DNA from: Lytechinus pictus | Taxonomy: Eukaryota | Length of the DNA stretch: 64,000 nt | NCBI RefSeq assembly: GCF_037042905.1 | Contig: NC_087245.1 | Span: 26,166,001 to 26,230,000 of the forward strand | Direction: 5' to 3' | In this document: piece by piece, positions 13,239 to 62,000 of the stretch | How the letters are laid out: the number at the start of each line of letters is the position of its first letter | Position numbering within the stretch: the first letter of the stretch is position 1 | Notes under the pieces: model-generated | Databases searched by the model: none | Seen by the model: the letters and a program-made list of their open reading frames with translations, nothing else | Told to the model about the DNA's origin: nothing | Program-made: the position numbers and the translations under genes

Positions 13239-16200
13239 ATAATAATAATAATATCTTTATACACTTAAAATGTTGGGCAACATACTGTCTACTGTGTTGA
13301 GTAATGTATTTTGGCAAAAAATATATATATTCTGGGCAATTATTTTTCAGTTTAGCAAATTTATTACCCAATTATTAGTTTCTATCACCCAATTTGGACA
13401 GATTTTAACCAGTAGTTGTATGGAAAGTATGTTGCCCAGGGTTAGTTAAAGGTTGGGCATTTTTGCCCAACTATTTTAAGAGTGTAAAGACAAATAAATA
13501 TTTTAACATCAATACGCGGTTGAAACACCCAAATATAATTTCCATTTCGGCGATGTGAACAGTGAGATGATAACTTCAATAGAATATTCCATCTTTGAGA
13601 GAGAGAGAGAGAGAGAGAGAAGAAGAAGAAGAAGAAAATCCTAATGAAAACAAGAATTTAAATAACAGTAGAATGGTTAATAACTGTAATCACGAAATCA
13701 CCATGAGCGAATGAACATTCTTAATCCTACCACCAACCTGTAAATTTTGAGGACAAGCATTCCATAGGCAATGGCAAACCCCCAACCTCTGAGCCACTTT
13801 GCGAGGAAGCAGGTCAGTGCACATGGTTCGAAGTACATAGCGATAAGTTCAGCATAGAGAACAAAGGCTCCAATGAGGAGAACGACAAGCATCCACGGAC
13901 TGTCACAGCAAATCACCTGTAATAGTATTTAAAGTATTGAGTTCAAATTAGGGTTTGCATGCTCTTTATATGAGCTGTGCATTTAATCTCTTTTTTTCAA
14001 CGACATATAGATGTTGGTTCGGTGGGAAGTCCTTCCCTTTGAAAGAATTATCCGAATTGTAATGTTATTATGAAATCGATTATTTTGTCTATGACTTTTA
14101 TGTAACTCTTTAAATACTACTTGGATTATGGGCAGTTTAATCGGCGTGATAGCTTCCTTTCCTTACAATGTACTTCTATGAAGTAACTAGTATGATATGG
14201 AATATGTACAGCATAGAAATACATTGCAATAGTGCGTTGCACTTTGTATTATGTTAGATAAAAGTTTGTTGCACTGTGTACTATTTTCTCATACGCGCAC
14301 TATAGCTAACAGGATAGGCACAAGCAGGGGCGTCGATCCATTTTTCAGATGGGGGGGGGGGCAAAATCATGAATCAACTTTCCAAAGGCACTCGATCACA
14401 CAAAACAAACAAACAAACTCACACACACATATATGCCTATATATATATACATATATATGACTCATGAGATAGAGACACATATCTCACCAACAAATAAATG
14501 CGAGCGCGAAGCGCGAGCTGAAATTTCTTTATATTCTGACCTGAAAGCTTGATATTCTAAGCATTTTTGGTACTAATGATTAAGATGGGTATCTAAAAAA
14601 CAATAGATGCGAGCGCGAAGCGCGAGCTGAAAATTTTGATATTTCGATCTGAAAAACTTGAGTTTAATGGACGTTTTTAATAAAAAACAAGATATATATC
14701 CAACAAAATATTATTGCAAATCGGTGTGGGAGTTCTTTTGAGGTCTAGAACTGAAAACGGGACATTCTATTCACCTATTTAATCATGAAAAGTATGGGTT
14801 TTTGCTACAGAAATGATGCGACCGCGAAGTGCGAGCTAAAATTTTGTTATATTCCAATCTGAAAAGCGGACATTTTGAGCACGATTTTAGATAAAGAACG
14901 AGTTGTGTATTTCAATTTCGCTTGCTGATTTCTGTGTAACATTACAATCTTATCTTATATTTTTATTTTGCACATGCGGAATTATTGGGGGGGCAAAACG
15001 ATATGTTTGCCCCCCCCCCAATATTTTTATTGGTGGGGCGATCGCCCCCCTGCCCCCCCCCCCCCCGGATCGACGCCTCTGGGCACAAGGAAAGATGAAA
15101 CCTCTTAGCTTTGCCTAAATTTGGTCATATATTTTCAGTTAAGGTAAAAAACAAATTACCGAAAAGGACAAATATTTTGTCTACATGTTATTTCTATATG
15201 AATAATCAAATTATATTTGCGGAGTGGAATATAAAGCAAATAATTTTTTTTTCAGCAAATGAAGCAAACCATCACTTTGTCGTCAAAGTAAATCTTTCTT
15301 CAGTTCCGCTTTCGATAGCCACATCTATATCGTCTCGGAAACGATAGGTTGCATCATCATTTTCACCAACAGAAACTATTTGCTTAATTGAGGAGTAAAT
15401 AATGAGAAATAGTGGGATAGACAATGATACCTACCTTAGCTGTTCTATTTCTGAGGATGATTACGACCAAACCAATCGTCAGGAGCATGCACAAAGCTTG
15501 CATGGTGAGTATGACAGCTCGAAGTATGGCATCGTTAGTCACGAAGCAAGGTGCATCATCCAGACAGGTGGTACAACCTTCACGGCAAGGTCGACAGTCA
15601 AAGTTATGTATATAGTCATCAGCTCCGACACCTCCTTCGTGTTGTGGAGATATTGATAGCATCCAAGCTTGTTCAACCATCGATCCATTGAAGGCCTTTA
15701 CAGGAGCAAAGGTATCAGGGAAGTAGAAACGATCTTTGCAGACACACTGGTAGGAACCACTGGAGAACCCACGTCTTGATACAGGAACGCACTGCGGAAA
15801 GCAAAGCAATGATATGATTATTAGCTTGGTACCATATAACCAGGGTAATATTATCAAAACAGCAAGAGCAGATGTACTCAAATCCTTGAAACTGAGGCGA
15901 AGTTATAAGGTACTTCATGCATATATACATGTGGTTTATGTATTATATGTACGATCTAAAATGATTTATTATGAAAAGTAAAATCTTACACGGATGTACA
16001 ATGGGGTCACTCTGTCTAAGATTTATTTCTAGTATTGATAATACCAATTCGATTACTCTAAGTGCACATTTAGGGTTGCAAATTTGCACCCAAATGAAAA
16101 GGATGAAAAGATACATTATATTCGTTTTTGTTTGCTTCCAGAAATGCCTGTTTGCCTCTTCAAAGTTGCACAAAATATTTGATTTTTGTGCACCTTCCCG

Positions 16201-38955: not shown

Positions 38956-39338
38956 GGCGCGCCAGGGTTGCTGCCCTACAGCAAGGCCCTATATGAGCTA
39001 GCCCTCTACGTTCGTTGACCTACAGCAAAAGAAGGCAGATTTAGCAGAAGTATAAAAGGAACGGTACACTTCGCAAGGCAAGAAAAGGTACATTACATTG
39101 ACAATCGTCAGGTAGATTTACGGAAATTGTATTGTCAATTTAATGATGATTGATCGTGAATCATGTATCTTGAAAAAAACTATTCGTTTGTGTATGTAAA
39201 AGTTATTTCCACTCGGTGTCTGAATGTTCTACCACACTGTTGTAGTCCCACATGCTAATTTCTGTGTCACACGCACTTGCAACTCATTGTTGCAAGTAAG
39301 TTAGATCTAGGCCTACTGAGTCGAACTATATTTTATAT

Positions 39339-39850
39339 ATGATGGGGGGACCTAAAGCTACGCACTTTGTTTTCAAACGATAAAAACTATGTCAATTTTG
39401 ATATTTGAACAAATTATCTTTCACTAATTTGTGGCAAACATATCAAAGATCATTAACCAAGAAAAAAATATTGCAAAACTCACGTAATCCGTAATACGAA
39501 AATCCCGCCGTGTTTTCCGAACACCTCTTGATTATGCCGCCCGATGTAGACATGGTAGAAGGGGTCCTAAAGCTACGCACTCAATTTATCATGCAAAATG
39601 ATAGTATTTCCTGTGCCTCAATTTCTAAAATATGTTCACATAATATAGGATAAAATGAAATTAAAGTGAATATACATGATATAACTCAAAAATTCCAAAC
39701 TGTTGTTGGTTTTCTCTGCATTTAGAGATTTACTGCAGCCTCTAGAAAAAATTGAATAGGAACACAGAGTCGCATTTGCCATAAGAATTGCATGCGCGAT
39801 GAGTGGTGCGTAGCTTTAGGACCCGTGAAGCTTTAGGACCCCCTACCATA
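39339..39850. mobile_element. TA-flanked MITE (Tc1/mariner-like)
   Basis: gggggacctaaagctacgcac at left (repeated at ~39561); gtgcgtagctttaggaccc..agctttaggaccccctaccata at right. Confidence 0.65.
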
Positions 39851-40223
39851 AAATGATTGATACCTAACAAGTTTACCTCAAGTGATGTTCGTGTAGTCTC
39901 CACCCCACTTCACTACCGCTACACTACGCTTCACCTACCTGAACATCCAGGTGGTTAACTCGCTCTGATACTTCGAGTGACAAAGGTGGGATTTTATGGG
40001 GGGAAATATAAATCTCATGCACCACTACTAAAAAGAATAAAAAACTTATCTTCCTACTTTTCATTCTAATTTCACTCAATATCCATCCTCCGGTTAGTCT
40101 AAAAATTGGTGATTTTAGAGCCAGTATCGGGTTCCTCACACATTAATTCACTGCCGATTCCACAAAACATCGCAAATCGCAGCTCAATTTATGAATATTC
40201 ATGATGGGACTAGCCTGGAGGCT

Positions 40224-42496
40224 CCTGGGGCCCGTTTCTCAACACCGTCATAAGTCTAACTTCTTGACTAAATCAGAGATAGTGAGCTACTTGTCCGCAA
40301 ACCATTTCACAAAGCCCTCTTTGCCAAGATCGGGGACAACAGCCTGATTAAATATTTATGACACCTCCAAACCTGTCACAACTTCTTTCTTAATGACGTA
40401 GTGGCATCATGTGGGTAGACTATGACATGCAAAAGTGCCTTAAACTTTGAAAATTATAATCTTACGTAATCAATTGTAGAACATGGAATTATATAGCAAA
40501 ACAAGTGCAATCAGGGTGACCAGATTTCACAAAGTGAAATACGGGACAATCGACAAAGCATGCTGCACGAGCGGATCAACCGAGCCAGGTCTTCATAAAA
40601 AAAGATGAACAAAGGAGGCTACACAGTGTTAGACCTGTAAAAAAAAAATAGAATTGGAAGGGAGGATGAACGAAAGAATGAAGGAGAGGAAGAAAAGACG
40701 AAAGAAAAGAGACGAATTGAGAAAACAGAAAGAAAAAATGAAGGGGAAAATGAAGGAAAAAATAAAAAAGAATGAACGAAAGTTCGAATAAAAGAAGGAT
40801 GAAAGAAAGAATAAAAGAGAAAAAAAGGTTTCCGTCATTCTTTGAATTGAATATAGAAAGAAAGAAAGAAAAAGGAAGAGAAGCTGAATAAATGTGTGAA
40901 AGACAAAATAAAGAAGAGAAAGAATAAAGAGAGAAAGAAAGAAAAAGTAAGAAAAAAGGAGGAGGAAAGAAAGAATGAAGGAAAGGAAATTCTTTTCCTT
41001 CATTCTTTGAAAGAAAGAAAGAAGAAAAAACAGGAAGAAGGGAAGGAAGGGAAAGAAAGGATAAGGGAAAAGAATTAGAAGGAAAAAATGAAATAAAGAA
41101 TGAAAGAGAGAGAGGAAACAATGAAGGGGGGAGAGTGAAAAAAATAAATGGTAGAGAAAGAACGAAAAGAAAAAGGAGAGCAAGGGAGAAGGAAGATAAG
41201 AAAAGTTTAAGGAAAGAAAGATTGAAGGGAAAAAAGGAAATTAAAAAAAGATGAAAAGTAAAAGAAAGAAAGAAAAATGAACAGAAAGAGAAAGGATCAG
41301 GAAAGAAAGATAGAAAATACAGATAGAACAAAAAAGGGCAAGCATGAAGGATAAAACGTAAAGGATAGAAAAGAGAAAAATGAAAGAAAGGAAGGGGAAA
41401 AAAGTTCAAACTTCAAGCAAACAAAAAATCCAATCCTCTAACAAAAATCTTAAAATTTGGGGTTATTTATTTGGGGTTAAAATATTTTTTTTAATTAAAA
41501 AAAAACTAAAATGTTTTAGAAATGAATAAAATTTCAAAGTGAAACATTTTCACCACACAGGCATCTCTCCCATCCCATATGCAAGTTCGCACTGGTCACA
41601 ACAAGACAGAAAACGAAAACTGAAACAACTAGATCTAGTTATGAAAACTCAACAACTTGTTCCTCCGATTACATCACCAAATCAGTAATCTGAGTATCCA
41701 TAATATAAGTATACAAATTTCCTGCTGATTTTGTGATTATTTTGGTGGAAATACTGTTTATCATGTGAGATTGTTTGCACCATTGAGAATCTGCTCCCAG
41801 CTAGTAGCTAGCCTGCCACACACAAGCAGGAGGCCAGTTCGTTTGCAATGTATTGAGTTAGCAAGAAAATCACCGCAGAACTTGCGAAAGTTTAGTTATC
41901 AATTTTATTGTGGTCTCTGCTTCATCATCTGTTGGTTATTTGATGAAAATTCTTCACTTTTAAATGTATTAACTATATTTTGGAATCTTATATATATTTT
42001 GGAATATTATATTCTGGAATCATAAAAAAAGCATACAATGATCATCCTTTTACAAAGAAAACCTTTACATGTATGGTTTACTTCCGTAAACTATTAAAAT
42101 TTGATATCATGGGGGTATCCATCTTAACATCAACAAGTGATTTTTTAGTCATGAAATGAATTATTCATAATTTTATTTTTTTCAGCAATTGTATGCTCCA
42201 TTTTTCAGAGTTTATGTATGGTGCATATTTTGCCTCTGTTATTATTTTGATTAGATGTATTCCCCAATTCACCACAATACTTGCAGTTAAATAATAATTT
42301 TGCCTTTTGGAAATTATGCTGTTTTGTGACTATAAAGGCTACGTCTCGTCTGCTCTTTTTACCGATTGTATCGATATCAAGGGATTCTAGTAAGGAAGCC
42401 CTTTGTGAAACGGGTTTAGTAAGATTAGAACTAACTCCGTGGTTGGTGGATAAAGATATGACTAACTTGTCCTGGTGTTGAGAAACGGGCCCCAGG
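40224..42496. mobile_element. 2.3-kb non-autonomous PIF/Harbinger-like element
   Basis: Perfect 23-bp inverted ends cctggggcccgtttctcaacacc / ggtgttgagaaacgggccccagg (including CWG flanks); no transposase visible. Confidence 0.75.
40590..41410 (+). repeat. Purine-rich (GA/GAAA) low-complexity tract
   Basis: ~800 bp dominated by A/G; gives spurious F/L/S-rich minus-strand ORFs. Confidence 0.9.
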
Positions 42497-44512
42497 AAAG
42501 TAAAAATCAGTCTACTATACGTAGGCTTACCCTCCATGAAGCCTGGGATGGCATGCCATTGCTCTATGCGGACCGAGTATTTTGGAGACAACAGTGTTGC
42601 TCCAAAATACTTGTTTTCTTCCCAAACTTATGTAAATGGGCTAAAATATATTATTTAAGCTTTCAGCACTAAATAGACATATTATGGAATAAAATTTAAC
42701 ACAAATTATAGAAAATATTACAAGTAGAGAGGCGTGTACTTTACAGTCTGTTATTGTCACCATCTTTGTTATCGTAGCCAAAGATACTAGACGCGTATAG
42801 AGGGTGACAATATCATGAGCAGTGCCAACTTAGCTTTCAAAAAATACTTGTCGACCGATAAATATTATGAATTGTAAAATACTTGCACCAGCCGATAAAT
42901 ATTGTAATTTGTGTCAGCAAAATGCATTGTATGAATGTAGTATGGTTTATAAGTGTATATTGAGAGATTTTGTTATTTATTAACTCCTATTTTGAATTCC
43001 AAATAAGGAAAGGATATCCTGAGATACTAGATTTTTATATTACTAAACTTATAATACTTCAACAATAAATGAACTAAGACCAAGACAATGGACTTGAAAA
43101 GAATAAAAGATTTATTATAATTTATCATCATAAAGGAAACACAACTTCTTAAATAATTGTTAAGGGGAAATAGGAATAATTCTTCTATTAAATTGTATTC
43201 ATACAATGATGCAAATACTAAATTTCAGACCCTTTCTGCACCTGCAGCTAAAATATCCTGAGTATCTGTATGTGCCTCTTTTTGCCTTATTATTGGATGA
43301 TTCTATTTTCTTCAAAGTTGTTCTTGAACCTACCAGAAAAAGTTAAACGAAATGTCTTTACAGACAATAGAAAAAAAACCTGCAGAACAGCTTAACCAAG
43401 AAACAAAATCCAATGTTTGGATAAAGATTCGAATGTTATTAAATTTATCCACTCTTAGATACAAGTATCCAAGGACTTACTACATTTCTAAAAAAAACAA
43501 AATGCCAATTACTATTTGTCACATGATCGATATACACATAAAATGTGATATTATAATTGAATTCCCTAAAAAAATATCTTTCAACCAAGAACATACTACA
43601 GTGCGTATCAAAAAAAAGTTTACACTTCGAAAAAGTCCTGTAAAAGTATACATTTGTAATATCCTGAAGATTTTTCAACATTTTAACATTGGTACAGATC
43701 CATTTAAGCAAATGACGATATAACTGTCGAAAAATATTTCCGCTTGAGTGAGCACCACTTACTTTTGAAAAGTTAGTGAAAAATGATTTGCGCAGAACTT
43801 TGAAATAGTTATGCGAATAAAAGTAGACCTTAATCATGAGGAACACATAGAATTTAGCTATTGAAAGATATCTTTTACCTTTTTAAATTTATTTCCTTGC
43901 CCAAAACACTTCGAAGAGTGCCATTGCACCCCACCCTGCTCCCCCACACACTGAGGCCATCGTGACTATATTTGCTTTACACTGAGCTGTGATTTTCATG
44001 AAATGGCTTAGGCTTGATTTTCATTTTGTTAATCATTGTCAAGCTTGGGAAAAGTGTGAAGAAACAAATGTAAACCCACTTTAAATGATAAAAACTAAGT
44101 GAAAAAAATGTTGGAGATGTCTGATATAAGATTTTGTTTAGATTTAGTTATGTCCTCAGATCCAGTTGGCACAAAAAGGGTAAAGGTTGTGTTAAAATTT
44201 TAAAGGGATGGTCTGGGCTGTAAATATTTATAACTTAATAAATAGAGTAGAATTCACTGTTCACTACGCACTGTATAAGTAGAGATAAAACGGACAGATA
44301 ATTACTGAGACCAGCTATGGTAAGTAAAAAGATTTTGGCAGCAGTCAGGTCAGAAGGGCGTCATAAAACCTTTGTCACATGCAGAGATTAAAAAGGATGT
44401 TTGGGTTAAAAAAAATATATATATAAAAAAGGACACCGATTTCAAGTGAAAATCTGTGGTTGATTGCATATGTGCAGTTCATGAATTCTTGGAAGCTAAT
44501 GGGGCTGTAAGA

Positions 44513-44677
44513 CCTGGGGGGCGTTTCATGAAAGGACTTGTCGGACGTTTTATCCGACAAGTCCCATTTTATCCAACAGTTACCATAGTAACAGTACCTC
44601 TCAGCCAATCAACATTAGAAAAAGATGTCAGATCTGACAACTTGTCGGATGAAAATGTTGATGAAACACCCCCCAGG
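44513..44677. mobile_element. PIF/Harbinger-like MITE
   Basis: cctggggggcgtttcat / atgaaacaccccccagg ends; internal acttgtcgga/tccgacaagt repeats. Confidence 0.8.
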
Positions 44678-46296
44678 ACGTTATAGCCAGTGTACAGCAA
44701 CATAAGTATCACAGTCCATTATGACATTTAATCCTATTTCATCAATGATGCATTATACCAACTTTTGATACATATGGTATACACTGGTTAACATTCAACT
44801 ACAGTATGATAAGCTACTTTTCTCATGTAGTTGAAAAATAAAAATCCAACTAAGTGTAACATTTGTAATCTGCTTAAATAACACATTTTTCCAAGTGCTG
44901 ACAATATCATTACCCCACCTTTTGCACGGCTACCATCATAAGGCACTCCAGTATTTATTTAATTTCTTTGAAAATACACCAGGTACTAATTCATGTAACC
45001 TGGGTGGGGAGTGGCAGACAGTACAGTTAGATTTTACCTCCAGACTTAATTCAAAATAAAAAGATGCTGATCCACAACACCTTTACGTAAAAAAATTCCT
45101 AAATAAACCAATGCTAACCCCTAGGTCAAAAGAAAATAGCCCTTTAAAAACTGATCACTTAAAATTCATATGATAGTACGTTTTCTTGTAGATGACGTAC
45201 ATGCCTCATTGAGACCCTCCCCGCCTTTATCTGAAAACATCACTAAAATCAGTCTCAACATATCGTCAAATAGCTCCCTTTCACGCTTAGTATTTGGGAA
45301 TGAGTGCTTCAATACTGGAATGTCCAAAAGGCAATCTATTATAAACATTAACATTTGGTACTGTTAGAAACTCAACTCAAATTTATTTGAGAGTTTTGCT
45401 TATTTCTTTGAAGTGCTGTGCAGGGAGTGGCCGGATTCTGTCCAAGTGCATAAGACTAAATTTTAAAGGGATGAAACAACTTTATTTCTAGTAAGAAAAT
45501 TTGCTTCTGCCAGAATTAAAGGTGCAGTGTACAAGCCTAATCAACAATACCTAAACTTTTGGATGACATGTAACTCAATAACTACGTTAAAAGATGAAAA
45601 ATAATATTTGCCATACAGCAAGCTTGAGAGCACCCAGCTGGTAGACAGCAAATTTGGCCCTGTTGGCCCATCTCAGTGGCACGTGACACAGGAACCATGC
45701 CTGCCTGAAGAATACTTAACAGTGGTTAACGATGGTACCCTTAGCATGAAATCATCTCCATTTTGTTTTGGTAAATAACTGACCACTTGGCCTGAGCTCC
45801 AGCCATCCCTAATCTAGGAGTGCAAATGTGAATGAATTACCAGCTGAATCAGTGAATTTAACTCTTGGACAAAGTTGCCAACTGCCATTAATAACTTTCA
45901 TTTTAAGTTTTCTTCTATGAAGACTTATTACAACTGAACCTTAATAAATAAGAGCAAAAAGTAGGAAAATAAAGGTGCAGTCACACTTGAACATTTTAGC
46001 CAGTGTATGCTGATATAACTAGGCTATGGCAAGTCATTTTCTTAATCCCAAATCGATATCGAGAATCGCCTTTTGTTTACTACATAAATGATTCTTCATA
46101 TGAAGAATTTGAATTCTTGATATTTTGTGTAAACAAATTGCAGTTCTTAATATAAAGAATGGAATGCTTGATAAGAAACAAGATTAAAAGGGAAAACGGC
46201 TGGCCAAACATACGGAATGTCAGCATACCCTGGCTAAGATGTCCAAATGTGACTGCTCCTTTAGGATGCAAATCCTATAAAAATATCTTGAAGGAA

Positions 46297-46886
46297 TTAA
46301 AGAGAATGAAACCCTTGAGGAATAAAATACAATGAAATAAATACAGTGAAAATTAGACATGCAACAAGAAAGCCAGGGTGGCGCCAGCATATTTTGAAAA
46401 ACCTTCATATAGGCCTTCTTATAATTTTTGTTTTCTTCTCACTTCTGAATTAAAAGTTAGGAGCATTTGAATGTCGAGAATGCTAATGCTATGGAGATCT
46501 CATTGGCAAAGTGACCAAGATGTGTCACACATGAACAGCTCTCTCATTTGATACATTAAAAAAAGTAATTTAAAAATATCGTTTTGCTTATTCTAATTTA
46601 GCTCCAGCTATTTGTCCATGATGTACGTATTGTGTAAAACTTCTATTGCAGTAAATCCTTGCACTTGAAAGAAAACATGATCTATAGATATACTTCATAA
46701 AATTTTTAAGTGAAACCTACAAAATTAATGAGGAAATTGTTCATGTGTGACATCACACATCTTGGTCTTAATGCCAATGGGATGATCTTTGTAGAATTAA
46801 TGACATCAGCATTAAAATAGTCTAACTTTCTGGATTTGTCAGTTTTATACCTTTCAATTGTTCTCCCAGGGTTTCATTCTCCTTAA
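46297..46886. mobile_element. TTAA-flanked MITE family B, old diverged copy
   Basis: ttaaagagaatgaaaccct / gggtttcattctccttaa; shares gagcatttgaatgtcgaga..ctaatgctatggagatct with 59961-60551. Confidence 0.8.
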
Positions 46887-46960
46887 GAACCATGATTATT
46901 TCATGGAGAACATACATGTAAAGAAATGGTACATATGCCTAGAAAACAATAGATGAAGTG

Positions 46961-47040
46961 CTATAAAGCTTTCCCAAGCTCAATTTTCTTCTGTATTGCT
47001 TTAGCTGAATGGTAAATCATGGAATCAATCAGTCCAGCAA
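46961..47040 (-). CDS. ERGIC3: ERGIC3 exon 11 (terminal)
   Basis: (V)[28 protein letters not shown]. Confidence 0.95.
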
Positions 47041-50000
47041 CTGTATTAAAAAACAAATGAAGCAGAAAATAGAAAAAAAGGATTTAAAAAATCACTCGCT
47101 ATATTGTTGAAACTTGCACAACATACATTTTTTTTTAATATAGCCCTTCACATGTCCATTCTAACAATTTTAACCTGAACATGCAGGGCGTTGAAATTAC
47201 ATTATTTGAAGTAATAACAGCATTGTGAAAAATTTTGCTTGTACAGGTTGTAAAGATGTGATTATGTATTTATGTCACTAGCATGTCCGGGAATGTAATA
47301 AGTAGACTACACACTTTGAGGATATTCAAATTTTAATATGGTACAGTATTGAAAACTTCAAATATGTCTTACTTGATAAAAAATATATACACTTACCTGT
47401 AAAAACTCCCCCTATGATAGCACATACTCCAGTTAAGAAATGCATAAATGATCTGTAAAATAAAGACAATTCATTGCATTGTTTTCTATTAAAGCTATGC
47501 ACTGTAAAGACAAAATTTACAGGTATTACTGATGCAATGCTTCAATATACAGTAAGTGAAAAAAATAACTATTAAGATAAAAATTATGAACAACTTTTGC
47601 ATTCTCTCTCTACCAATATTTCTAGTATAGAATGTATACTTTGTTGGTAGTATGAACTTTTTGTCAACAAACTATTATACGATTGATCATATTTCCTTCA
47701 AATATCAATTAACCTCAAAATATTTTTTAACGTATATCTCAGGAGAGTTCTTTCTGTCAATGGATTGTTTAGACTTTTAACAACTTTACAATTAGAAATG
47801 ATTAAATGATCAGAATCTTACCTATTTACTTCTTTATATTTAACCATAAGTGGAGACAGTTCATATAGAACAAAGACACCCGGTAAACCATGTTCTCCCG
47901 TTGAAAACGATGTTGTTACTTGCTTCTCATGTTTTGTGACGGAATACTGATTTGTTCTCGTTATAGATTGGTCCAGTTTGGTGTACGTGGTAGGAACAAT
48001 TTTGACGAAATACTGAAACATGGAAGAACCTAGAAGTAATATACAAATATATTAACAGTTAATAAAATATGAAAAGAAAAAGAATAATGATGTTGCAAGT
48101 ATTGTGAAATGCTTAACTAATTCATTGATATTTTGATGTCTTCCTACTAAGGACAAAATGATGAAGATGCCAGTGTCTGCAAATAACATCAGAACCTTCT
48201 TGCTCTGGCAGGGTTGGTTTCATGAATATATATCACTAATTCATTAATATTTCCCCTGAGGATAAAAAGATCAAGATATCCGTGTCTAGACAGCCTACAT
48301 CAGGATAGTCTTGCTTTGACATGGTTGGTTTCATGAATACATGTCATTAACTCACTGATGTTATGATGTCTCCCCATTCAGGATAAATTGACCAAGATGC
48401 CTGGGTCTGCGCAACCTATGTCAGGGCCTCCCTGCTTTGACAGGATTGATTTCATGAATACATGTCATTCATTAATTAATGTTTTGATGTCTCCCTTCAG
48501 GATAAAATTGATCAAGATGACTGGGTCTGTGCAACCTATGTCAAACCTATGCTTTGACAGGGTTGATTTCATGAATACATGTCATTAATTAATTGATGTT
48601 CTGATGTCTCCTCATTCAGGACAAAGAGATCAAGATGCCAGTGTCAATGCAACCTACATCAGGACCTTCCTGTTTTGACAGGGTGAAGATGGGTTTTATG
48701 ATCGGTTTCTGTGTTGGGATGGGGTCAGGTGCACTCTTCGGTGGATTTTCAGCTTTAAGGTACGTATATTTGAGAATTTCCTACAGACTGTATGCTATAT
48801 AGTTTGCCAGGGAGAAAGGAGGGGGGATATTTTTTTTGCAAATTTTGGCGTTGGGTGCCATTTAGCTGAAATATTAACATCAATCACTCTATGATACTAG
48901 TACTTTCATTGCACCGTACATGCAGGTACCTTTTCATGCACTCTGAGCAAACAGCTACAACCACCAGTCTATGAAATAGAGTTATGCCGTATGGCAATAT
49001 GTCAAGGAGAGATATCTTATTATTCATTCTTTACTACTATTCATTGATTGATTTATTTTTAAGCCAACTGGTAACATGTAGTCTAGGCAGAGATTGCAGC
49101 TATTGTATATTGCAGTTGTTTTTTGTACAGAAGGTGGTTTGGTGCAGATAATAATAATAATATACAGTTCTTGTATAGTGCATATCACAATTATGAACAA
49201 TGTCTCTATGCGCTTCCGAAGGACTTGGATATTATTACCCCAGCTGTAGCTTGGCAGCCGTAATTACTAAGATTACAGGGCACACGCATTTCAAGGAATA
49301 AATTCCTGCCAGGTACCCATTCACCTCACCTGGGTTAAGTGCAGCACAATGTGGATAAATTTCTTGCCGAAGGATGTTACGCCATGGCTGGGATTCGAAC
49401 CCACGACCCTCTGTTTCAAAGTCCGGAGACTAATCCACTGGGCCCCAGCGCTCCATTTTGGTACAGATTTTCTGTACCAAAATTTGCCGCCTTATCCTGA
49501 TTGGCGATACAAAATCATTTAGCAAGACAAGAGGGTGTAGCCTGTTTGTAGCCTTGCCACATCAGACGTATGACCTGCATTTAGCATAACAGCAAATATA
49601 ATATTGCCACATCAGAATTGTAAACCAAAAAGACAATAGCCGCAGCCTCAAACTAGATCAAAGACCAACAGTAGTCAAACGGTGGTATATTATAAATCTA
49701 TCAATAATTAGTAAAGAATGATATATAAAAGAGATGTCTCTCCTTGATATATTCGCATACCTCTATAGTACAAAATAAAGTGAATCTGTTTACAGCATCA
49801 TATTTAAAATTTATTTGAAACGAAAGAAAAAAACTCCCATGATTTACAATGTAGTTCCCTAGATTCACCCGTTTCTATTTACATCCTTTAATTTTATGCC
49901 TTAGCTGTATACATTTTGAGACTGTGCATAGTTTGTACCAATCTTTGTTTTCTATCAAAGAAATTAATTGATCAATCCTTATTGGACCTTAATCTATTAA

Positions 50001-53000
50001 TGCATATAAAACCCATACATTGAGAGGCATATACTGTATAGTCAAAACTAAGAATTGTATCTTTTCATCCTGATCTCCAGATACGGTCTTCGTGGTCGGG
50101 AGCTGATGAATACAGTAGGCAAGAGCATGGTGCAGGGAGGGGGAACGTTTGGACTCTTCATGTCAATTGGAACAGGAATACGATGCTGATATATGAGGAA
50201 TTATCTTGAAAGGACTCTTAAAATCATGAACTGATCACAAATAGGATGTCATTCATCAAGGAACTGACCTCGAGTTTTGAACAATGATACTGCGGTTGTG
50301 AGACTAAGTCTAACTCTCCTCCAGTGTATTGGATTTGGTGGATATTCAATTGTGAGATTGATTTAACAAGCATTTCTTTCCTCATTGTTGAACATATCAA
50401 ATTGATTTATTTGTGTAATTTCCCATGACTGATTTACAGTTATGGGTCTCTTATATTTATACATGTACACTTTAATCATTCATAATTTTGATGTACAAAT
50501 ATTTTCATGTGTTAAAATCTTACCAATACAGAGAACAACAAAAAAATTGCACTTTTTTGTTGTTGTTTTTTCTTCTTCCAGAGTAAGTGCTGCTTCAAGG
50601 TGATGAAGATAATATAGGACTCTACTTGAAGGGTACATCCACCCCCCCCCCCAAAAAAAAAAAAAAACATTGATCTCACAGTGAAGAGAACCAGCAGAAT
50701 TAGCTTGGTTTTTTTCTGTAGGTGTGATGATGCCAAAAGGAAAACCATGCTTATCAACATATTGACGGATAGCTCAACTCAGACACAAAATTTTGATAGG
50801 CTTTTGTTTGGCTTCACCTCTTCCTTGCATGTGGAAAAGAAGAGTTAAAAAACTTAATCTCCTTTTCGGGATTGTTAGTGGATTATAGGTAAGAATGTCT
50901 AGGGAATTTGCTCCACATTTTTTTGAAGCTGCTACACAAAAAGTCTTTAGCGTATCAGATTTTTACATAGGACCGTAAGGAACTCGGTTAGAGCTTTTAT
51001 ACTGCAACCAAAAATGCTAATCAACTTTATTTTATAATAAGCACAATAATTCCCTCAATTCCTCTTATTTGAAAAGGGTATGAGTAAGAATGCTAAGTTA
51101 AATGTGATATTGTATGCACAACATTGTCAGCGTATCACATAATGAAAGGCAAGAATACAATTACTTTGCGGAGAATGTGTTTGTTTTATTTTTACCATGC
51201 AAAATGATATCACATGTACAAGAAAAGAGTGTACTGTTCACTTTGCAGAAAGAATACATAGTAGGGACAATGCATGAATAAAACTGAAGTGCAAATTTCA
51301 TTCAATAACATAGTAGATGATAGCATTTATAATTTCATTATATGAACAGAACCACCAACTTTTTATACCAATACATTGAAATATTAAATGCCACAATAGT
51401 ATATTAAGATCATAAATATGTGTATTCATGGTACAGGCAAAGTTGATTGAATCCAATGAGCGCTTTACCTTGTCTTCAGCACCTTGTCGAGCGGTACTGG
51501 CACAGAAATGTAGTGAGCATTATGAGGCCTCTGTTACAACCCCGGTAATGTAGCAATGATGCCTAATGTCTCAACAACGCATTTGACATCACAATCCAAA
51601 AGATGTAACTAGGCCTACATAGTACTCTGTTAGCACTAAGGTTTCTGTGCGGCGGGTACTGACGGTTAATGCAGTGCGCGAGAGGACTTTTCCACTGTTA
51701 CATGTAGCTTGCAGCACTGGGCACATTAACACACAGTGTAGGTTCCATTCATTCTTCACAGCATAGGTTGAAGCTGAGAACTTTTTTTTACCAACTGAAA
51801 ACACCCTCTAACACCTTTGTTTAAATCTTGGCTAATAACTTAATTGAAATGTTGCCTCCAAAAGATCAGTTGTTCGCCTGTAATACTTTTCGCCAGGAGG
51901 CTAATGCATTACAGTCAGGATGCACTTTGCAATATTCTGATTATATTACATGGTATACATGTGTAAAATAAAACTTTAAAATCCATATCGCAAATAAAGC
52001 TTCATTTATATGCTATTTTTCAGTCTGGATACTTTGTATCATTTTGTAGTATTCTTTGCACATTCAAAAGTCTGTCTGAAGCTTTCATAAAGGGTCAATA
52101 ATATAATATATGAGATAGACAGGCAAAGCTGAGAGGGAGAGGAGAGGGGAGACGGCAGAAAAGGAGAGAGGGGGAGCGCAGAAAGGCGGAGAGAGAAGAG
52201 GGAGATGGAGGGTTGAAGAGGAGGAAGGGGGGAGAGTGAGAAAAGAAAGGGAGGTAGAAAAGAGAGAGTGAAGAGAAAGAACAGAGATGAGATAGACAAG
52301 CAAACAGAGAGGGGAGACAGCAGAAAGAGGGGGGAGAGCAGAAAGGTGGAGAAAAAGTAGAGAACAAAAAGTGGTAAAGAGGGAAATGGAGGGTGTATAG
52401 AGGGGTAGAAATAATAAATCATAATGCCAATTCCGCAGCAGATATGAATTCAAGAATAAATACTGTACAAGATTCTAGATCCAATTTCAAAACCTCTGAT
52501 ATAACAAGAAGCATTTTTGCTACTAATATTTACCTTTAACATCAATGATCTTTGTATTGTCAAGAGGATTTTCCATGCCAGGATACTCCATTCCAAATGA
52601 CAATGTTTTGACGTGATGTGTCATGTTAAACTGAATAAATATAAAATAGAAAATAACAGAAAGCAATTATATAGAAAACTGAATTATAGAAAAAAAGAGC
52701 ATTTTACTGATTTTTAAAAATGTACTGTCAAGTGTGATTAAGTTGAAATTCTACATAAGGTATCACAGGCCTAATTCATTCCCCATAGACTCGTGTGTTA
52801 AATTGGCACTTTAAAAAATTCATAAAAAATAAGGATGAAATTCGGGGGTCGAATGTTTACTACCAGTGGATAGGATATATATCTGGCAATCCATATCTGA
52901 CCAGAAAAGGGTCCCTCGACCAGCTCATTTAAAAAATAAATTGGCGTGTTTGAAGACATCGTCGGGGGGAACAGATTCATCACCTCAAACGGCAAAATAG

Positions 53001-56000
53001 CCCTAATCCTTCCGCCAGTCAAAATATAGTAAAAAATTTGTGATATTTCTTCCCAATTTGGGAAAAGGAAGTTCAGTAATTACCAAAAATAGAATCAGTG
53101 TTAGATGGACAATCATATGCATACACTTTAAAAAATAGCAATGGGTTGGCTCGAATGAATATCTATGGCCTGCCACTAGTGATTAGGCCCGTGCAGCCAT
53201 AAGATGAATAATTAGCTATGTGGAAACAATTTTATCGAACCTGAACATGCAAACCATGCACCATTCACATCTTTCAAGCCAAATTTCGCTAAATTGAACA
53301 GATTTTTGAAGACTAATAAGTTCTGATTACGGCTCTCTAACATGAACCATAGTTATTTAGATGATTTGAGACCCGTTTCATAAAGCTCAACAATCATTGA
53401 TAGCATTGACTACAATGTATAATTAATCATGAAAATCAAGCGTACGATTAATCGCTATGAATTTTTGAGTTACGGGACCCTGATTATATATGACACCATC
53501 TGGCTCTAACGAGAACAAGATATTTTAATGTGTATAAAGACCTCTGTGACCTTTGACCTCATAACCCCAAAATTCAATCAGATCACTGCCATATATGCAG
53601 ACATGAGCCAAGTTTCAAGTTCTTAACCACCTTCGTGAAATAAGGCCATTGATGTTGGTTTTGATGATTTAATTAATTAAGTACCTTTCCTCCTGAGTAA
53701 GGTTGTAAATCATGAACATGGACATGATGCTGTTGGAAACTCTTTCCTGGAGCAAAGTGGAAATTACCAGCAACCTGCATTTAAACAAAACAAAGTAAAC
53801 TTCTGAAGGTTTCCATGGCAAAGATCAATGTAGAGGCTTCATTATACACCTGAAACTTACAAGGGAATAGGTTAAAGGGGAAGTTAAAAAAGTTTTTTGT
53901 GAAAATACCAGACATTAAAAAAAACACATTGGTGAAGGTTTGAGGAAAATCCATCAAAGATTAAGAAAGTTATTAGAATTGAAGATTTTGATTTGTGACA
54001 TCATATGCGAGCAGCTGCCCATTATAAAACACATAAATTCAAAAAAAAAATTATGGTTCAAAACTGCAATCTTCTTAATGATTAAATCATTATATTTATG
54101 CATCTTTTGATGTAATAGTCTTGCAGTGCATGTTTGCTGTTTTTTTATTTGTTAGAGACCTATGAACTTCTTCGATAGTCTAAGCACTTCCAATGAGCCA
54201 TCAGAAGGGGAAAGTATTTTTAATAACTATTGGTGAAAGGGAATTTCAAGGGCAGAAAGACAGTTGAGGTGGGCACCAAAGGCTATTGCATTCATTGCAT
54301 TGGATTATTACAAGCCTTGCTAGTCCAAGGTTGTGTTTTACTAAGATTCAAGTGTGACTAAAAGTCACAACTTAATTTTTAACTTGCGATATAATTGTTT
54401 CACTGCTTTGGTCTGATCTTGATCCAGGGATGGCACTACTAGGTATGAATCAATGAGATAGAGTGATATATATCATGTGTGTGTTGGCACTTAAACATGA
54501 CTCTTTCACACTTAAATATTTGTGATACACCCTCCAGATCAGTTTGAATCAGTAATTGTAAATCTTCAAATAAACATAGCCAAGGGCATAGGCGGGGGGG
54601 GGGGGGGGGGGGGTGCACATGCACCCTCCCGCTGAGGCAGAGGAGTTCTGACACTGGCAAGCATAACAAAATTTGAACCCCTTCTGCTTTCAACAGCAGA
54701 TTTTCTAAACTTTAGTTCCACCTCCCCAAGACATCTGCACCCCCATACCATTTAAGTTCCACCTCCCATTAAAATCCACCTCCCCATGCTCAAACCAGCC
54801 TACGTCCTTGACATAGCAGCACATGTATTAATTACCTTGTTTACTTCTAGATACCCAAATACTTCACAGCCTTCCTCCTTCTGGGATTGCATCTTCTCGG
54901 CAAAGCCCTCCCGCTTACACTGCTCTATGTTGGAAGGATCACTGAAAGCCCAACCTTTCCTACGATAAGCTTCCTGTACTGATTCACAATCATTGCAACA
55001 TCTGTAACAGAACAAAGAGTATTCAATTTGGCCAGGTTGAAAACTTAAGGTGATTCTGTCTCAAATCTCTTTGGATCGCAGAAATCTGTACAACAATTGG
55101 CAGAGTTTGACTTCGATATAATTTTTTAGCCCGTAACACAAAGCTAAGCAAAAATTGTATCACATTTTTTAACACTTGTATTGACTACAATGTACAATCA
55201 ATCGTTAAAAGCGTACGATTGAAATAAATAATGCTCCGAGTTGGGCTATTATTCAACTTATGATACATATAGATCAACTTTTGCAGTCTACTGTATAATA
55301 ATAAAAGGCAAATAGTTACAATTGGTGAAAGTGATGAGACAAACCATTATTCCAAATGAGATTTTGATGTAGCTATCTTTCCAAAGTGAAGCTCAACAAA
55401 GATAGCATCGACATTTGCATCGCTGAGAAAGTGAGAAGTTTTCTTACCCACTAACACCAAAAGGTGTTTAAATGCTTTACATTCCATCTGCACATTCCAG
55501 TTAGAAATAGGAAATTAAACCTATTTCTCTCTAATGAAAAACAAACAAAACAAAGGAAAAAAACAACTATGGCTAAGACATGACATTCATGAAATGTGAC
55601 TTTTTCAGAATGATCCCTAACATGTCATGAGAATATCCTATTATCATGTGATAAGTCATACTTACTTTAAATCGGCTGTTTCTGCACCATAGCAACTCTC
55701 ACATCGATTTGGATCTAATACTTTCTTCTCTTCTTTCTGGTCCTCTTCTTTCTAAAATAAACATACAAATAAAGATTTGAAAATGGCAATAATAAAAGTT
55801 TTTTAATAACAATAACGAAATATTCTGGTTTTGTATACCGCATAGCATGTTACCATCAAACATTTCTAGCTTCCCTCCAAGAAGAAACCCATGTTCATGT
55901 GATAAGCCTAACAATCTCTAAATTTCTGAAATAATTCTTGACAGTGATCATGGAAGCAATAATCACTTTCAAGTGAAATGACAAATTCATTATATTTGAT

Positions 56001-59000
56001 CCACAGCAAATCTATTCTATTATTACTTACTTTTTCTTCCAAAAGCTATACTAGCCTTCAAGTTGTTTCAATAAGCTAAAACTATGGCACAAATACTATT
56101 TCTTGCACCCCTGATGGCTGGATGTACCTTCTAAAAAAGAACTGATTTTATCATTTACTAATTTAAAATGCAAGGTGATCATAAATTAAAATTACTTGCT
56201 TTCTGAAAAATTCCTGAGGAGGTCTGTGTCTTGATTTTTGTGTCTTAAAGATGTCTCTAGTAAGAAAAATAATGCGTTAAAAGAAATTAAGTTTCTGTCT
56301 TACCTTTTCTGATTCTTCCTCCTCTTTCTTTCCTAGTTCCTCCTTCTCAGCTTCACTAATAGGAGTTCCGGTCTTGTCAATCCTTCGCTTGAAGATGTTA
56401 TGATCTACATCTAACTGCTGTTCGCCTGATATATCCATCGCATCAATACTAAGATCTATATCAAAAACAAATAAATAAATAACTAAATAAATGATGTAAC
56501 ACTGTGTATTCTTACACACTTGTATCTCCATCTAATTCAAATTATTCTATTCAGAGGCACACAAATGAATATGGAAAGAGTTTTTGTGGGTTTTTGATTG
56601 GATAACTTAGATGCATCTCCCTCCTCATTTGGAAATAAATTCACTCTGGAAATTAGTCTACAAGTGGAACGCCTCTGGCAGTCTCGCCTGCATTATGTAA
56701 TTCAATAAAGCAACAGTGCTGACATTGAAAACAACTTGGAAGTCTTGGATGAATAATTTTCCCCCAAAACACCATTCACTTGATGATAATTTACTTAGTT
56801 TGTTGACCCCAACCCCAAATTCCAGTTACTTAACCTAAGACACTTTTATATTATGTAGTTTCTACAAGACATGCATCCATTCATGGTTTTATTTCAAGTT
56901 AAAATTTGATTACGCTGCTACAATATAGAGTACCGAAGTGTGACGTCATCAATTTTCCAATTTTGTATTTCAGCATTTTTTATACCACATTTTGGTAGAG
57001 CAGGATGAAACACCCCTACTACCAAGATTTGGTGCGAATCGGTCCATGGGGGCCTCAGATATGACCTCAGGAATACATTATTAGCCCCATAGAAGTCAAT
57101 GTATTATTGGCCTGGTTCCAAACTTTTAGAACAAGGCCAATAATACATTGACTTCAATGGGGCTAATTATGTATTCATGAGGTCATATCTCAGACCCCAT
57201 GAACCGATTCGCACCAAATTTTGGTAGTGGAGGCATTTCACCATGCTCTACCAAAATATGGTATCAAAAATTCTGAAATGCATAAAAAGTTTTTTGTGAT
57301 GTCATCACTTCGGTACTCTATTGTCCTTGCTGTTCACACAACAGCAATAATAATAGTAAATTGTTTACTATAAAGCCAACTTACAAGCACAAGCCATTTT
57401 GGGGAATACTATCTCCATATTGATTTTGAGTTTCTCGCCTCTAGTTGCGTCCACATAAAGCTCTGGAATAACCTGTGAAAACAAACAAAAACAAGGACAG
57501 TAAATAAATCTCTCAAGGGCCGTCTGCACCATCCCGAATTTTCAAATCAGCCCGCTATTTCTGATCCGGCAAATTATCCCGATCTGAACAATTTCGAGAT
57601 TATTTGCAATGGAGACGCAAATATCGCGCTAGTTCGTAGGATTAATCTCGAGATTGCAATCCCAAGTCAACTTGGGATTATTTGCAAAATAGCGCGCTAT
57701 TTCACGAATTATCGCGCTAATTCGTAGGTGCAGACGCACTCGGGATTATTTATTCACGGCGTCAGACCATAATGCATCGATGCCTCGCTCGAGCAGGAAT
57801 TGCTCTTCTTGCGATGGTGGAGACGGGGTTTCTTGAATCTCAAGATTAATCGCGAAGAGGGCCGATCGGGCTAAAATCTCGAGATTGAGCAAATTCGGGA
57901 TGGTGCAGCACCGCCTTCACTTGAGTCAACTATGAGTACCTAGCAAACTGAAATGGTATTGGATGACACCTTTTTCATCACTTTCTTCGATTCTCTTGAC
58001 AATTGACAAAATTTTCTATTTTTTAATCTATTTAGTGACACCGGGGATAATTCAGCGCATATTTTGCTTTAAAACTTGCAGATTTTGATTGTTTCTTAAT
58101 CCTATGTCGCAAACCTTAGGCATCTCCTGGTGTATTTACCTGGAGAAAGGGAAAAAAGACTTGCAAGTTAATTATAGTCATTTTTAATTCAATTTTCTTT
58201 CCTGTATATTTAAGACTAGAATAATAATAATAACACTAATAAACAAAATGTATCTCCATCTCAATAGCACTTTAAAAAATGAAGGCTTGGCATTTCTTTT
58301 TATCACATCCTGAAAAAATAATAACTTTAGACAGTTAAATATACAAACACACCAGATTGTTTTAATTATACTACATCTTTCACATAAACTAGCGTTTTTT
58401 ATAATATTTTTTATCTTCCATTTTATCTGCAAATGAATCCATACTTTGACGATGGATAATCTTTAAATATTCATTTACCTTTACTCAACATAGACTTTAA
58501 ATTCTTAGAACATGATTTTTCTACCTCTAGTAAATTTGCAGCCTCAGTTATTGGATAGAAAGAGAAAGCTACAATCATAAAAATCAAAATATTTTTAAGA
58601 GTATTTTAAAAAGCATTCAATATTGATTTTTAACCCTCAATCTCCCGGGGTATTTTGATTCTTGTCAATCCCGGGGGGGGGGGGGGGGGGCCATTATGCC
58701 CCCCCCCCTTAAGATCTCGGCCGCCGATTGCGCGAGCGACGCAAAAATTTGCACACTGGTAGTGTGCGATGTAATCTACAAGGCTGTATGGTAAAATTTT
58801 CCAAAATAATGAGATTTTATTTTATATGAATTAATTATGCTAATTTATGCATAAATCATACTTTTTGCTATAATTCACTAAATAAAGCTCCTAGAATGCT
58901 AATTTTTGGTAAAAAAATTCTTTGTAGCAATCTTAACAATCGCAATTAAAAAAACTTCGGTTCGGAAATCAATTTCTTATGTATTTTATTGTTTTATGAA

Positions 59001-62000
59001 TTTCTTATGTATTTCTTTGTTTTTTTACTTTTTGTTTTTTATTGTTTTTTCAATGGAAATCATTCCAGACTTAGTTCTGATCATAAACAAGGCAAAATTA
59101 ATTCAGTTTAATCAGTAAAAGTAGAAATAATGATACATTTATGAATTTTTGCTAAATACACAATTTGCATTGGATTTGTACATGAAATCACGTTTATGAG
59201 CAATTTTGGGTTTGACATGCACTTACATAATGTTGCGTAATGTCGTAACCGTGTACCCGGGCGTCACAAATTTGGTCTCAAAATTTGCGCGAGACTTGAA
59301 AGTAAAAAGTCAGTGAGCGGCGAGGTCAAAAAAATTTGCGCAGCAGATATATCGCGAAAATTGTCAAGGGAGAATTAGGGTTAAAATGATTTAAACATTA
59401 TTTCAAATGTATTAAAACACAATTTTCTCAATAGAAATGTTCTCACCTCTTTTGTAAGATAGAAATTCAGTTCTGATATGAACAGTGTGATCATAATGAT
59501 ACTGCTTACGATGGTCACTGAAATAGAAAGAAAAGGTAAATATAAGCAAAATATAATTTTGATTTTTTAGAGTAGACCAAGATCCATTTTATAATATATT
59601 ATAATCATGTCTTGAGTTTTAGTATTTGTTAAATTATAATTTTTATCTATAAATTGTTCTTCAAAACGGCATTTAGTAACATCGCTAATCAAAGGTACGT
59701 CATAACAAAGCGGTTCAAGGTAAGCTTGTAACCGATTTTGTAATCGGCAACCGATTCCATTCGATTTCACCACAATCGGCAATCACTTGCCGATCTTCGA
59801 TCATGCCCCTTGAAGGAAAAAATCGAAAATAAAAAATCGGCGTAGATCTGGTTACAGTGCGTGATCGCTCAGAACTTATTTCAAGATTGTTTTTGAGGTG
59901 CTAGCTATTTAGAGGTCGCATTATTCAGGGAGAAAGACGCGGTATTATCTATGGCGATGTTTAAAGGAGAATGAAACTCTTGGAGCAAGTTAGCTTTTGT
60001 GAAAGCAGAAAAATCAAAGAATAAGATCAACAAAACTTTGAGTAAAATAGGACTAGCAATAAAAGAGTTATGAGCATTTGAATGTCGAGATCACTAATGC
60101 TATGGAGATCTTCCCATTGGCAATGCGACCAAGATCTGTGATGTCACACACGTACAACTCTCCCATTTGGACACTGAAAATATACCCCAAAACACCTCTT
60201 TTTGCTCATTCTAATCATATGACAAACGATTCATCAATGATATAATGTTGTGAAACCTCTGTACTTGTCATCTCATAAAGAGAACACCTCACCTTGTGAT
60301 AGACTCTATAAAAGTGAGAATATAAGTGAAATAAGTACTAAAGTAATGAGGGAGTTGTACGTGTGTGATATCACAGATCTTGGTCGCATTGCCGTTGGGA
60401 GGATCTACATGGCACTAGTGATCTCAATATTCGAATGCTCATAACTTTCTTATTATTCATTCAATCTTCCTCAAACTTTCAACAATAGGTTTCTTTGGTT
60501 TTTCTCTTTGATATGGATTCAGCTGGTTTCAAGGGTTTCATTCTCCTTTAAGAGGATAGATATCTTCTCTTCCAACTCATGGTGATAGCGGATGCCGCCG
60601 TGAACTTTGAAAGGCCGTATTACCGACGGAGCTCACTGCGTTACTCTCTTACATCGTTTATGATTATATACATTTTATTTTCAACCTCGTGGTGATAGCG
60701 GATGCCGCCGTGAACTTTGAAAGGTCGTATTACCGACGGAGCTCACTGCGTTACTCTCTTACATCGTTTATGATGATATACATTTTATTTTCAACCTCGT
60801 GGTGATAGCAGATGCCGCCGTGAACTTTGAAAGGTCGTATTACCGACGGAGCTCACTGCGCTACTCTCTTACCCCTTTATAATGATATAAATCTTCTCTT
60901 CAACCTCGTGGTGATAGCGGACCCCGCCATAAACTTTTAAAGACTGTACTATTGACGGAGCTTATTGCGTTACTCTCTTACATCGTTTATGATGATATAC
61001 ATTTTATTTTTAACCTCGTGGTGATAGCGGACCCCGCCGTGAACTTTTAAAGATCGTGCTACTGACGGAGCTCATTGCGTTACTCTCATACATCGTATAT
61101 AATGATATAAATCTTCTATTCAACATCGTGGTGATAGCGGACCCCGCCATAAATTTTTAAAGACTGTACTATTGACGGAGCTTATTGCGTTGCTCTCTTA
61201 GTTGTTTATGATGATATTCATTTTATTTTCAACCTCGTGGTGATAGCGGAAGCCGCCGTGAACTTTGAAAGGTCGTATTACCGACGGAGCTCACTGCGCT
61301 ACTCTCTAACCCCGTTTATAATGATATAAATCTTCTCTTCAACCTCGTGGTGATAGCGGACCCCGCCATAAACTTTTAAAGACTGTACTATTGACGGAGC
61401 TTATTGCGTTACTCTCTAACATCGTTTATGATGATATACATTTTATTTTCAACCTCGTGGTGATAGCGGATGCCGCCGTGAACTTTGAAAGGTCGTATTA
61501 CCGACGGAGCTCACTGCGCTACTCTCTTACCCCCTTTATAATGATATAAATCTTCTCTTCAACCTCGTGGTGATAGCGGACCCCGCCATAAACTTTTAAA
61601 GACTGTACTATTGACGGAGCTTATTGCGTTACTCTCTTACATCGTTTATGATGATATTCATTTTATTTTCAACCTCGTGGTGATAGCGGAAGCCGCCATG
61701 AACTTTGAAAGGTCGTATTACCGACGGAGCTCACTGCGCTACTCTCTTACCCCCTTTATAATGATATAAATCTTCTCTTCAACCTCGTGGTGATAGCGGA
61801 CCCCGCCATAAACTTTTAAAGACTGTACTATTGACGGAGCTTATTGCGTTACTCTCTTACATCGTTTATGATGATATACATTTTATTTTCAACCTCGTGG
61901 TGATAGCGGATGCCGCCGTGAACTTTGAAAGGTCGTATTACCGACGGAGCTCACTGCGCTACTCTCTTACCCCCTTTATGATGATAGACATCTTCTCTTC

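Follow-up and report, generated by a model that had tools for sequence, protein, structure and literature searches.

Here, we describe a gene within a gene in the sea urchin Lytechinus pictus. The window, by which we mean the whole stretch of DNA that was analysed, covers 64,000 nucleotides (nt) of contig NC_087245.1 (RefSeq assembly GCF_037042905.1, positions 26,166,001 to 26,230,000 of the forward strand), and every coordinate given below is a position within it. The minus strand carries the endoplasmic reticulum-Golgi trafficking gene ERGIC3. Both coding exons of the small mitochondrial gene ROMO1, which together span 48635-50189 on the plus strand, fall inside a single intron of ERGIC3 (48030-52533). 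A preliminary description of the window, made from its letters alone, had placed ROMO1 antisense within this intron, the eighth of ERGIC3, and that is where it lies. It is important to remember that the nesting is established for the coding exons of ROMO1 only, not for its untranslated region (UTR) exons.

The first coding exon of ROMO1 (48620..48759, plus strand) follows an AG acceptor and consists of 15 nt of 5' UTR, the ATG at 48635, and 41 codons plus 2 nt. A GT-AG intron of 1,321 nt (48760..50080, plus strand) then interrupts the Arg codon of ALR/YG in phase 2, and the second coding exon (50081..50189, plus strand) terminates with TGA. When 48635-48759 and 50081-50189 are joined by GT(ACGT)...(CTCC)AG splicing, they yield a stop-free open reading frame of 77 amino acids that is identical to a spliced relative (P0003) at 72/77 positions and to the ROMO1 of Glandiceps at 61/77. 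P0003 in turn matches the Pfam family Romo1 (PF10247) with an E value of 3e-28 and with 66/66 profile positions matched, and PF10247 is carried by 74/75 matches of the ROMO1 first exon. The profile match, together with an intact frame and a conserved phase-2 intron, places the gene in the ROMO1/Mgr2 family.

The ERGIC3 model comprises 11 coding exons on the minus strand, running from 63999 down to 46961, and 10/10 of its introns are GT-AG. It corresponds to residues 5-396 of L. pictus ERGIC3 (XP_054754014.2) with 392/392 identity, the first four codons lying past the window end, and its domains (ERGIC_N, PF13850, and COPIIcoated_ERV, PF07970) are those of the ERGIC3/Erv46 family. All on the minus strand, exons 1 to 7 occupy 53685..63999 (exon 1 is truncated where the window stops), exon 8 occupies 52534..52630 (its final codon is incomplete, with 1 nt), exon 9 occupies 47822..48029, exon 10 occupies 47397-47452, and exon 11, with the stop, occupies 46961-47040. 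The host intron, intron 8 (48030..52533, minus strand), measures 4,504 nt and follows codon 282 in phase 1. With canonical splicing, an intact ROMO1 frame, and a host model that agrees with the known protein throughout, the ROMO1 exon and ERGIC3 intron coordinates first proposed for this locus are correct. Intron 8 had also been called the largest of its gene. Among the 10 visible ERGIC3 introns it is, narrowly (4,504 nt vs 4,397 nt for intron 1) and owing to a tandem array alone; minus the four extra copies in that array, it would be 4,036 nt long. As a separate matter, the L. pictus ERGIC3 accessions XP_054754031.1 and XP_054754014.1/.2 (P0078, P0166, P0167) are one residue apart, and the two are probably a haplotype duplicate of an earlier assembly.

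The tandem array lies upstream of the ROMO1 start. Four decayed copies of ~110-121 nt each (48118..48585, plus strand) precede a fifth unit, from 48586, which is the working exon; Tandem Repeats Finder gives the array a score of 502 with a ~120-bp unit. A unit spans the ROMO1 intron end with its AG acceptor, then 15 nt of 5' UTR and about the first 20 codons, start included. Similarity among the five is 67-84%, and the acceptor AG is invariant in all of them. Copy 2 is without an ATG, while copies 1, 3, and 4 open frames of 26, 63, and 23 codons, respectively, all of which end before 48635. Additional coding exons were considered for these copies and are ruled out by frameshifts, the lost ATG, and early stops. 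Neutral slippage is the simplest reading of the array; the invariant acceptors could also serve as decoy 3' splice sites and so bring in extra ATGs upstream. Four decayed partial copies directly upstream are, in addition, what one might expect if the ROMO1 of the window were itself a duplicate, a pseudogene, or an assembly artefact, with the working gene elsewhere. We regard this as highly improbable, given the intact frame, the canonical splice sites, the conserved intron, the close match to a spliced relative, and the ancestral position of the gene.

Because the acceptor at 48618-48619 stands 15 nt before the ATG, ROMO1 should have an untranslated first exon upstream. Between ERGIC3 exon 9 and the array there are merely 88 nt of unique sequence, with weak GT sites only. 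Judged by sequence pattern only, candidate untranslated first exons of ROMO1 lie within 39200..47560 (plus strand), with GTAAGT donors after 39295, 44319, and 47551. The CpG observed/expected ratio is 0.83 at 37.7-41.0 kb vs 0.37-0.49 over 41-57.2 kb, and the low values extend well beyond the ERGIC3 stop. Low CpG is a mark of methylated gene bodies; if it is so here, the profile would fit a ROMO1 promoter near 39-41 kb and also a long ERGIC3 3' end. We consider it reasonably likely that the untranslated first exon of ROMO1 lies beyond ERGIC3 exon 9, in which case the two transcription units would be interleaved.

Metagenome contigs were scanned with a 22-sequence ROMO1 alignment, which gave 127 confirmed stretches; the best 80 loci were kept, and all locus counts below refer to these. 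ERGIC3 exons were sought at them by tblastn and with a profile of 79 ERGIC3 proteins. Such exons are present at 19/80 ROMO1 loci, and every match is antisense and in nesting order. The donor of the host intron occurs at the urchin codon and phase in 16/16 loci that display a donor, that is, 8 codons plus 1 nt past a conserved P[LMI]D (QLD in two loci). Similarly, the acceptor is in phase 1 in 8/8 loci, and where both intron ends are visible (6 loci) they are 567-7,756 nt apart. The 16 donor-bearing loci represent 11 organisms at <80% DNA identity, at least two of which are insects to judge by protein match, and L045 adds a twelfth through its acceptor. Of 11 nested loci examined, 10 likewise have the ROMO1 coding intron at the urchin position, and L002 is intronless. 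Since the best matches of L013 and L004 are named ant and wasp ROMO1 proteins (P0053, P0219), we take these two loci to be protostome.

Two of the loci deserve a remark of their own. In L033, a GC donor (2843-2845) stands at the conserved ERGIC3 host intron. In L004, 107-1026 holds an intronless ROMO1 followed by 882 nt antisense to an intron-containing ERGIC3; this looks like a ROMO1 mRNA with a 3' UTR overlapping host exons.

Accessions were also compared in six further named species with both proteins. They are consecutive, on one contig, in the hemichordate Glandiceps talaboti (XP_077990177/178), the nemertean Tubulanus polymorphus (XP_074656982/983), the sea cucumber Apostichopus japonicus (XP_071855293, 294-295), and the snail Lymnaea stagnalis (CAL1544931/932). 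In the hemichordate Saccoglossus, both genes are on a 27,669-bp contig and have consecutive UniRef identifiers, and in Nematostella the accessions (EDO42835 vs EDO47695) are not consecutive. An ERGIC3-first accession order, seen in 4/4 GenBank/RefSeq pairs, was tried as a sign of nesting and dropped, because UniRef and FlyBase identifiers run in the opposite direction.

The human 43.2-kD homologue of yeast Erv46p is ERGIC3. In Drosophila melanogaster, CG7011 is an Erv46p homologue; it shares 38% identity with the yeast protein and 47% with the 43.2-kD human one (PMC2195992). CG7011 is FBgn0036489, and FBgn0036488 is CG6878, whose top human ortholog is ROMO1 (PMC6063728). FBgn0036488 (3L:15162003-15162365, +) lies inside FBgn0036489 (3L:15160964-15163495, -) and is classed as simple nesting (PMC5174743, Table S1, row 190). 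Each fly identifier occurs once in the file of that article, so the pair does not figure among the young melanogaster nestings tabulated there. S2R+ cells express both fly genes (log RPKM, that is, reads per kilobase per million, of 1.82 and 1.53). In fly cells, CG6878 counts as a CRISPR fitness gene (mean Z -5.7), and knock-out of CG7011 scores strongly in the opposite direction (Z +4.0; replicates 3.7 and 4.1) (PMC6063728). The reanalysed RNA interference (RNAi) value in the same source is identical for CG7011 and CG6878, as expected from a shared amplicon (PMC6063728).

Nested antiparallel pairs therefore occur in a deuterostome, in the L. pictus window, and in protostomes, namely D. melanogaster and the insect-like L013 and L004. 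As the same intron, codon, phase, and antisense orientation recur across lineages, the nesting appears to be ancestral and bilaterian-wide. One intron, one phase, and one orientation are most simply explained if the nesting arose once, in the bilaterian ancestor, and we consider such a single origin very likely. The preliminary description had proposed an ancient deuterostome microsynteny and had left open whether the nesting was ancestral or lineage-derived. Its antiquity stands; a restriction to deuterostomes does not, as the fly, the insect-like loci, the nemertean, and the snail share the linkage. That the urchin and the metagenome loci agree in codon and phase favours the ancestral alternative.

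One could also suppose that the two genes were mere neighbours in the bilaterian ancestor and that nesting arose repeatedly and independently. Nestings do accumulate with time (PMC5174743), and the five named accession pairs speak of adjacency only. This account is nonetheless largely refuted, and we allow it only the slightest chance: ERGIC3 has 10 coding-region introns, and independent events are unlikely to have chosen the same one, at the same codon and in the same phase, in 16/16 donors and, for the acceptor, 8/8 loci as well as in the urchin, always antisense.

In cattle and turkey the arrangement is a different one. The cattle gene order is ERGIC3, SPAG4, CPNE1, RBM12, NFS1, ROMO1 (PMC11311081), and that of turkey is ROMO1, NFS1, CPNE1, RBM12, ERGIC3 (PMC8470100), so that three or four genes stand between the two in these lists and the nesting is not retained. 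Human ROMO1 and ERGIC3 are both at 20q11.22 (PMC7566486), and ergic3 and romo1 are named side by side for a Chinook salmon single-nucleotide polymorphism (SNP) (PMC12794147). The preliminary description gave the human genes as near neighbours that are not nested, which agrees with these amniote gene lists (separated in cattle and turkey, both at 20q11.22 in human). We infer that un-nesting took place on the line to amniotes.

Why, then, has the arrangement persisted elsewhere? In our judgement, it is probable that one nesting event in the protostome-deuterostome common ancestor has been kept, and that a structural lock has likely done more for this than shared function. Any breakpoint between ROMO1 and ERGIC3 would cut the ERGIC3 coding sequence, and loss of the host intron would delete ROMO1, on which fly cells depend for fitness. 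Escape would consequently take two steps, first the copying of one gene elsewhere and then the loss of the original. Each gene would retain its own promoter and its own strand, with no coding exons in common and with interference tolerated. Escape would have come about by duplication in amniotes and some other lineages. Such a lock is, in our view, the likeliest cause of persistence.

An ancestral nesting might instead have been kept by regulation, either through cis-elements in common or through antisense or collision coupling of ROMO1 output to ERGIC3 transcription. By their Pfam families and their known locations, the two proteins belong to different compartments, which argues against such coupling. 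The genes are not head-to-head and are thus without a common bidirectional promoter; nor do they form a regulatory block, as they overlap in a convergent sense and do not include a developmental regulator. The nesting did not survive in amniotes, nor is it seen in six long loci, and the fly knock-out scores are opposite (Z -5.7 vs +4.0) with both genes expressed (PMC6063728). As to the transcriptional interference that the preliminary description raised as possible, co-expression in that one fly cell line does not suggest mutual exclusion. Regulation would, for its part, account for the fact that the same intron retains ROMO1 even when shrunk to about 570-770 nt (L027, L002, L032, L033), and L004 resembles a spliced ROMO1 transcript with its 3' end antisense across ERGIC3 exons. 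Similarly, the genes remain only a few genes apart in cattle (PMC11311081) and turkey (PMC8470100) and adjacent in the salmon SNP listing (PMC12794147), and many ancient gene pairs have been ascribed to cis-regulatory constraint (PMC3514665). Taking both sides together, we hold retention by regulation to be unlikely. A more elaborate proposal would have this bilaterian gene-within-gene selected for regulation, with interleaved convergent transcription coupling a mitochondrial import subunit to an endoplasmic reticulum-Golgi cargo receptor, and with the urchin decoy acceptors and their upstream ATGs tuning ROMO1 through alternative 3' splice sites. This we find quite doubtful.

Several points nevertheless weigh against the single, structurally locked nesting that we prefer. 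ERGIC3 is missing from L018, L020, L028, L029, L038, and L042, each with a right flank of at least 7 kb; please note that the count of nested and non-nested loci excludes 55 of the 61 ERGIC3-less loci, where this flank is <5 kb and many are transcript-like. In the six long loci, either the lock was broken or the ROMO1 genes are extra copies. In favour of lock and escape, though weakly, ROMO1 is intronless in 5/6 of them vs 1/11 nested genomic organisms, as stand-alone copies that escaped by retrocopying would be. The intron loss may, however, be lineage-wide rather than due to retrocopying, and L002 is nested yet without the ROMO1 intron. The set of metagenome loci is rich in arthropod-like sequences, and a single cnidarian (Nematostella) makes a thin outgroup. 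Among the named species, an older Apostichopus draft places the genes far apart (PIK38505, partial, vs PIK40864), and consecutive accessions demonstrate adjacency, neither nesting nor the host intron. The fly evidence concerns nesting as such, and the same-intron result rests on the metagenome loci and the urchin. Finally, a lock is compatible with selection on regulation.

The remaining features of the window can be listed briefly. Within ERGIC3 intron 1 there are two ~590-bp elements (59961-60551 and 62140-62730) that are 97.6% identical and mutually inverted; both bear ~207-bp terminal inverted repeats and so resemble miniature inverted-repeat transposable elements. Between them, around 60576-62035, is a tandem array (110-bp x 13, with a 220/439-bp higher order), and a diverged copy of the ~590-bp element is present at 46448-46831. 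The same intron contains, at 63325-63351 on the plus strand, CAGGAAGTG and then a GTAAGT donor at 63346. We take CAGGAAGTG to be an ETS-like word, and the segment may represent exon 1 of a divergent neighbour overlapping the ERGIC3 5' end. Further along the minus strand, at about 7100-31512, is a gene for a GPR158/179-like class C G protein-coupled receptor, with weak GPR158_179_EC matches at 30448-31512 and 15387-15902 and a 7tm_3 match at 13701-13928. An Rfam search of the window gave no match.

How does the pair compare with known systems? It differs from Synapsin-TIMP in that ROMO1 and ERGIC3 are both housekeeping-type genes and in that the gene orders of cattle and turkey do not show their nesting. 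Synapsin-TIMP belongs to the only three clusters of overlaps, all of them nested antiparallel, that a five-genome survey found to be common to ecdysozoans and vertebrates (Solda et al. 2008, PMC2330155). Like ROMO1 and ERGIC3, it consists of unrelated protein-coding genes nested antiparallel in protostomes and deuterostomes (PMC2330155). Human-anchored surveys would miss ROMO1/ERGIC3, because the nesting is missing from these orders. The names ROMO1 and ERGIC3 are absent from six supplements of the five-genome survey, which may use other identifiers (PMC2330155).

D. melanogaster has 982 annotated nested pairs. With the typical ones, ROMO1 shares its small size as an internal gene and its opposite strand (the case in 71.3% of fly nestings; Assis 2016, PMC5174743). 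Typical Drosophila internal genes are young, tissue-specific duplicates with a median tau of 0.91 (PMC5174743), whereas ROMO1 is an old fitness gene that has retained its ancestral intron. The pairs of Irimia et al. 2012 (PMC3514665) are likewise unrelated genes that have been tightly linked for some 600 million years. They are explained by co-regulation from a head-to-head arrangement or by enhancers in the introns of a bystander close to a developmental regulator, and ROMO1/ERGIC3 shows neither; the two genes are unnamed in the main text of that article, and its supplementary pair list may contain them (PMC3514665). In the amniote block of the 20q11.22 type, both genes are still close on one chromosome, but three or four genes lie between them and they are un-nested.

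Our searches of the literature turned up no description of ROMO1-ERGIC3 nesting; Table S1 of PMC5174743 gives the fly pair by identifier, and the passages of that article that bear on it do not discuss its age. The arrangement can already be read from genome annotations, one species at a time. ROMO1/ERGIC3 is an addition to the small known class of ancient nested pairs, intact and ancestral to bilaterians.

The protostome-deuterostome split occurred more than 550 million years ago, and the finding describes a housekeeping-type pair that has been fixed at a single intron position since before that time. It also implies that ancient nestings are undercounted when human serves as the anchor. The amniote state, together with several intronless stand-alone copies, provides natural cases of un-nesting. 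Drosophila has kept the pair intact, with Romo1 as a fitness gene, and so lends itself to a direct test of lock versus co-regulation. For those who work on either gene, deletion of or RNAi against one of them in fly or urchin may affect the other.

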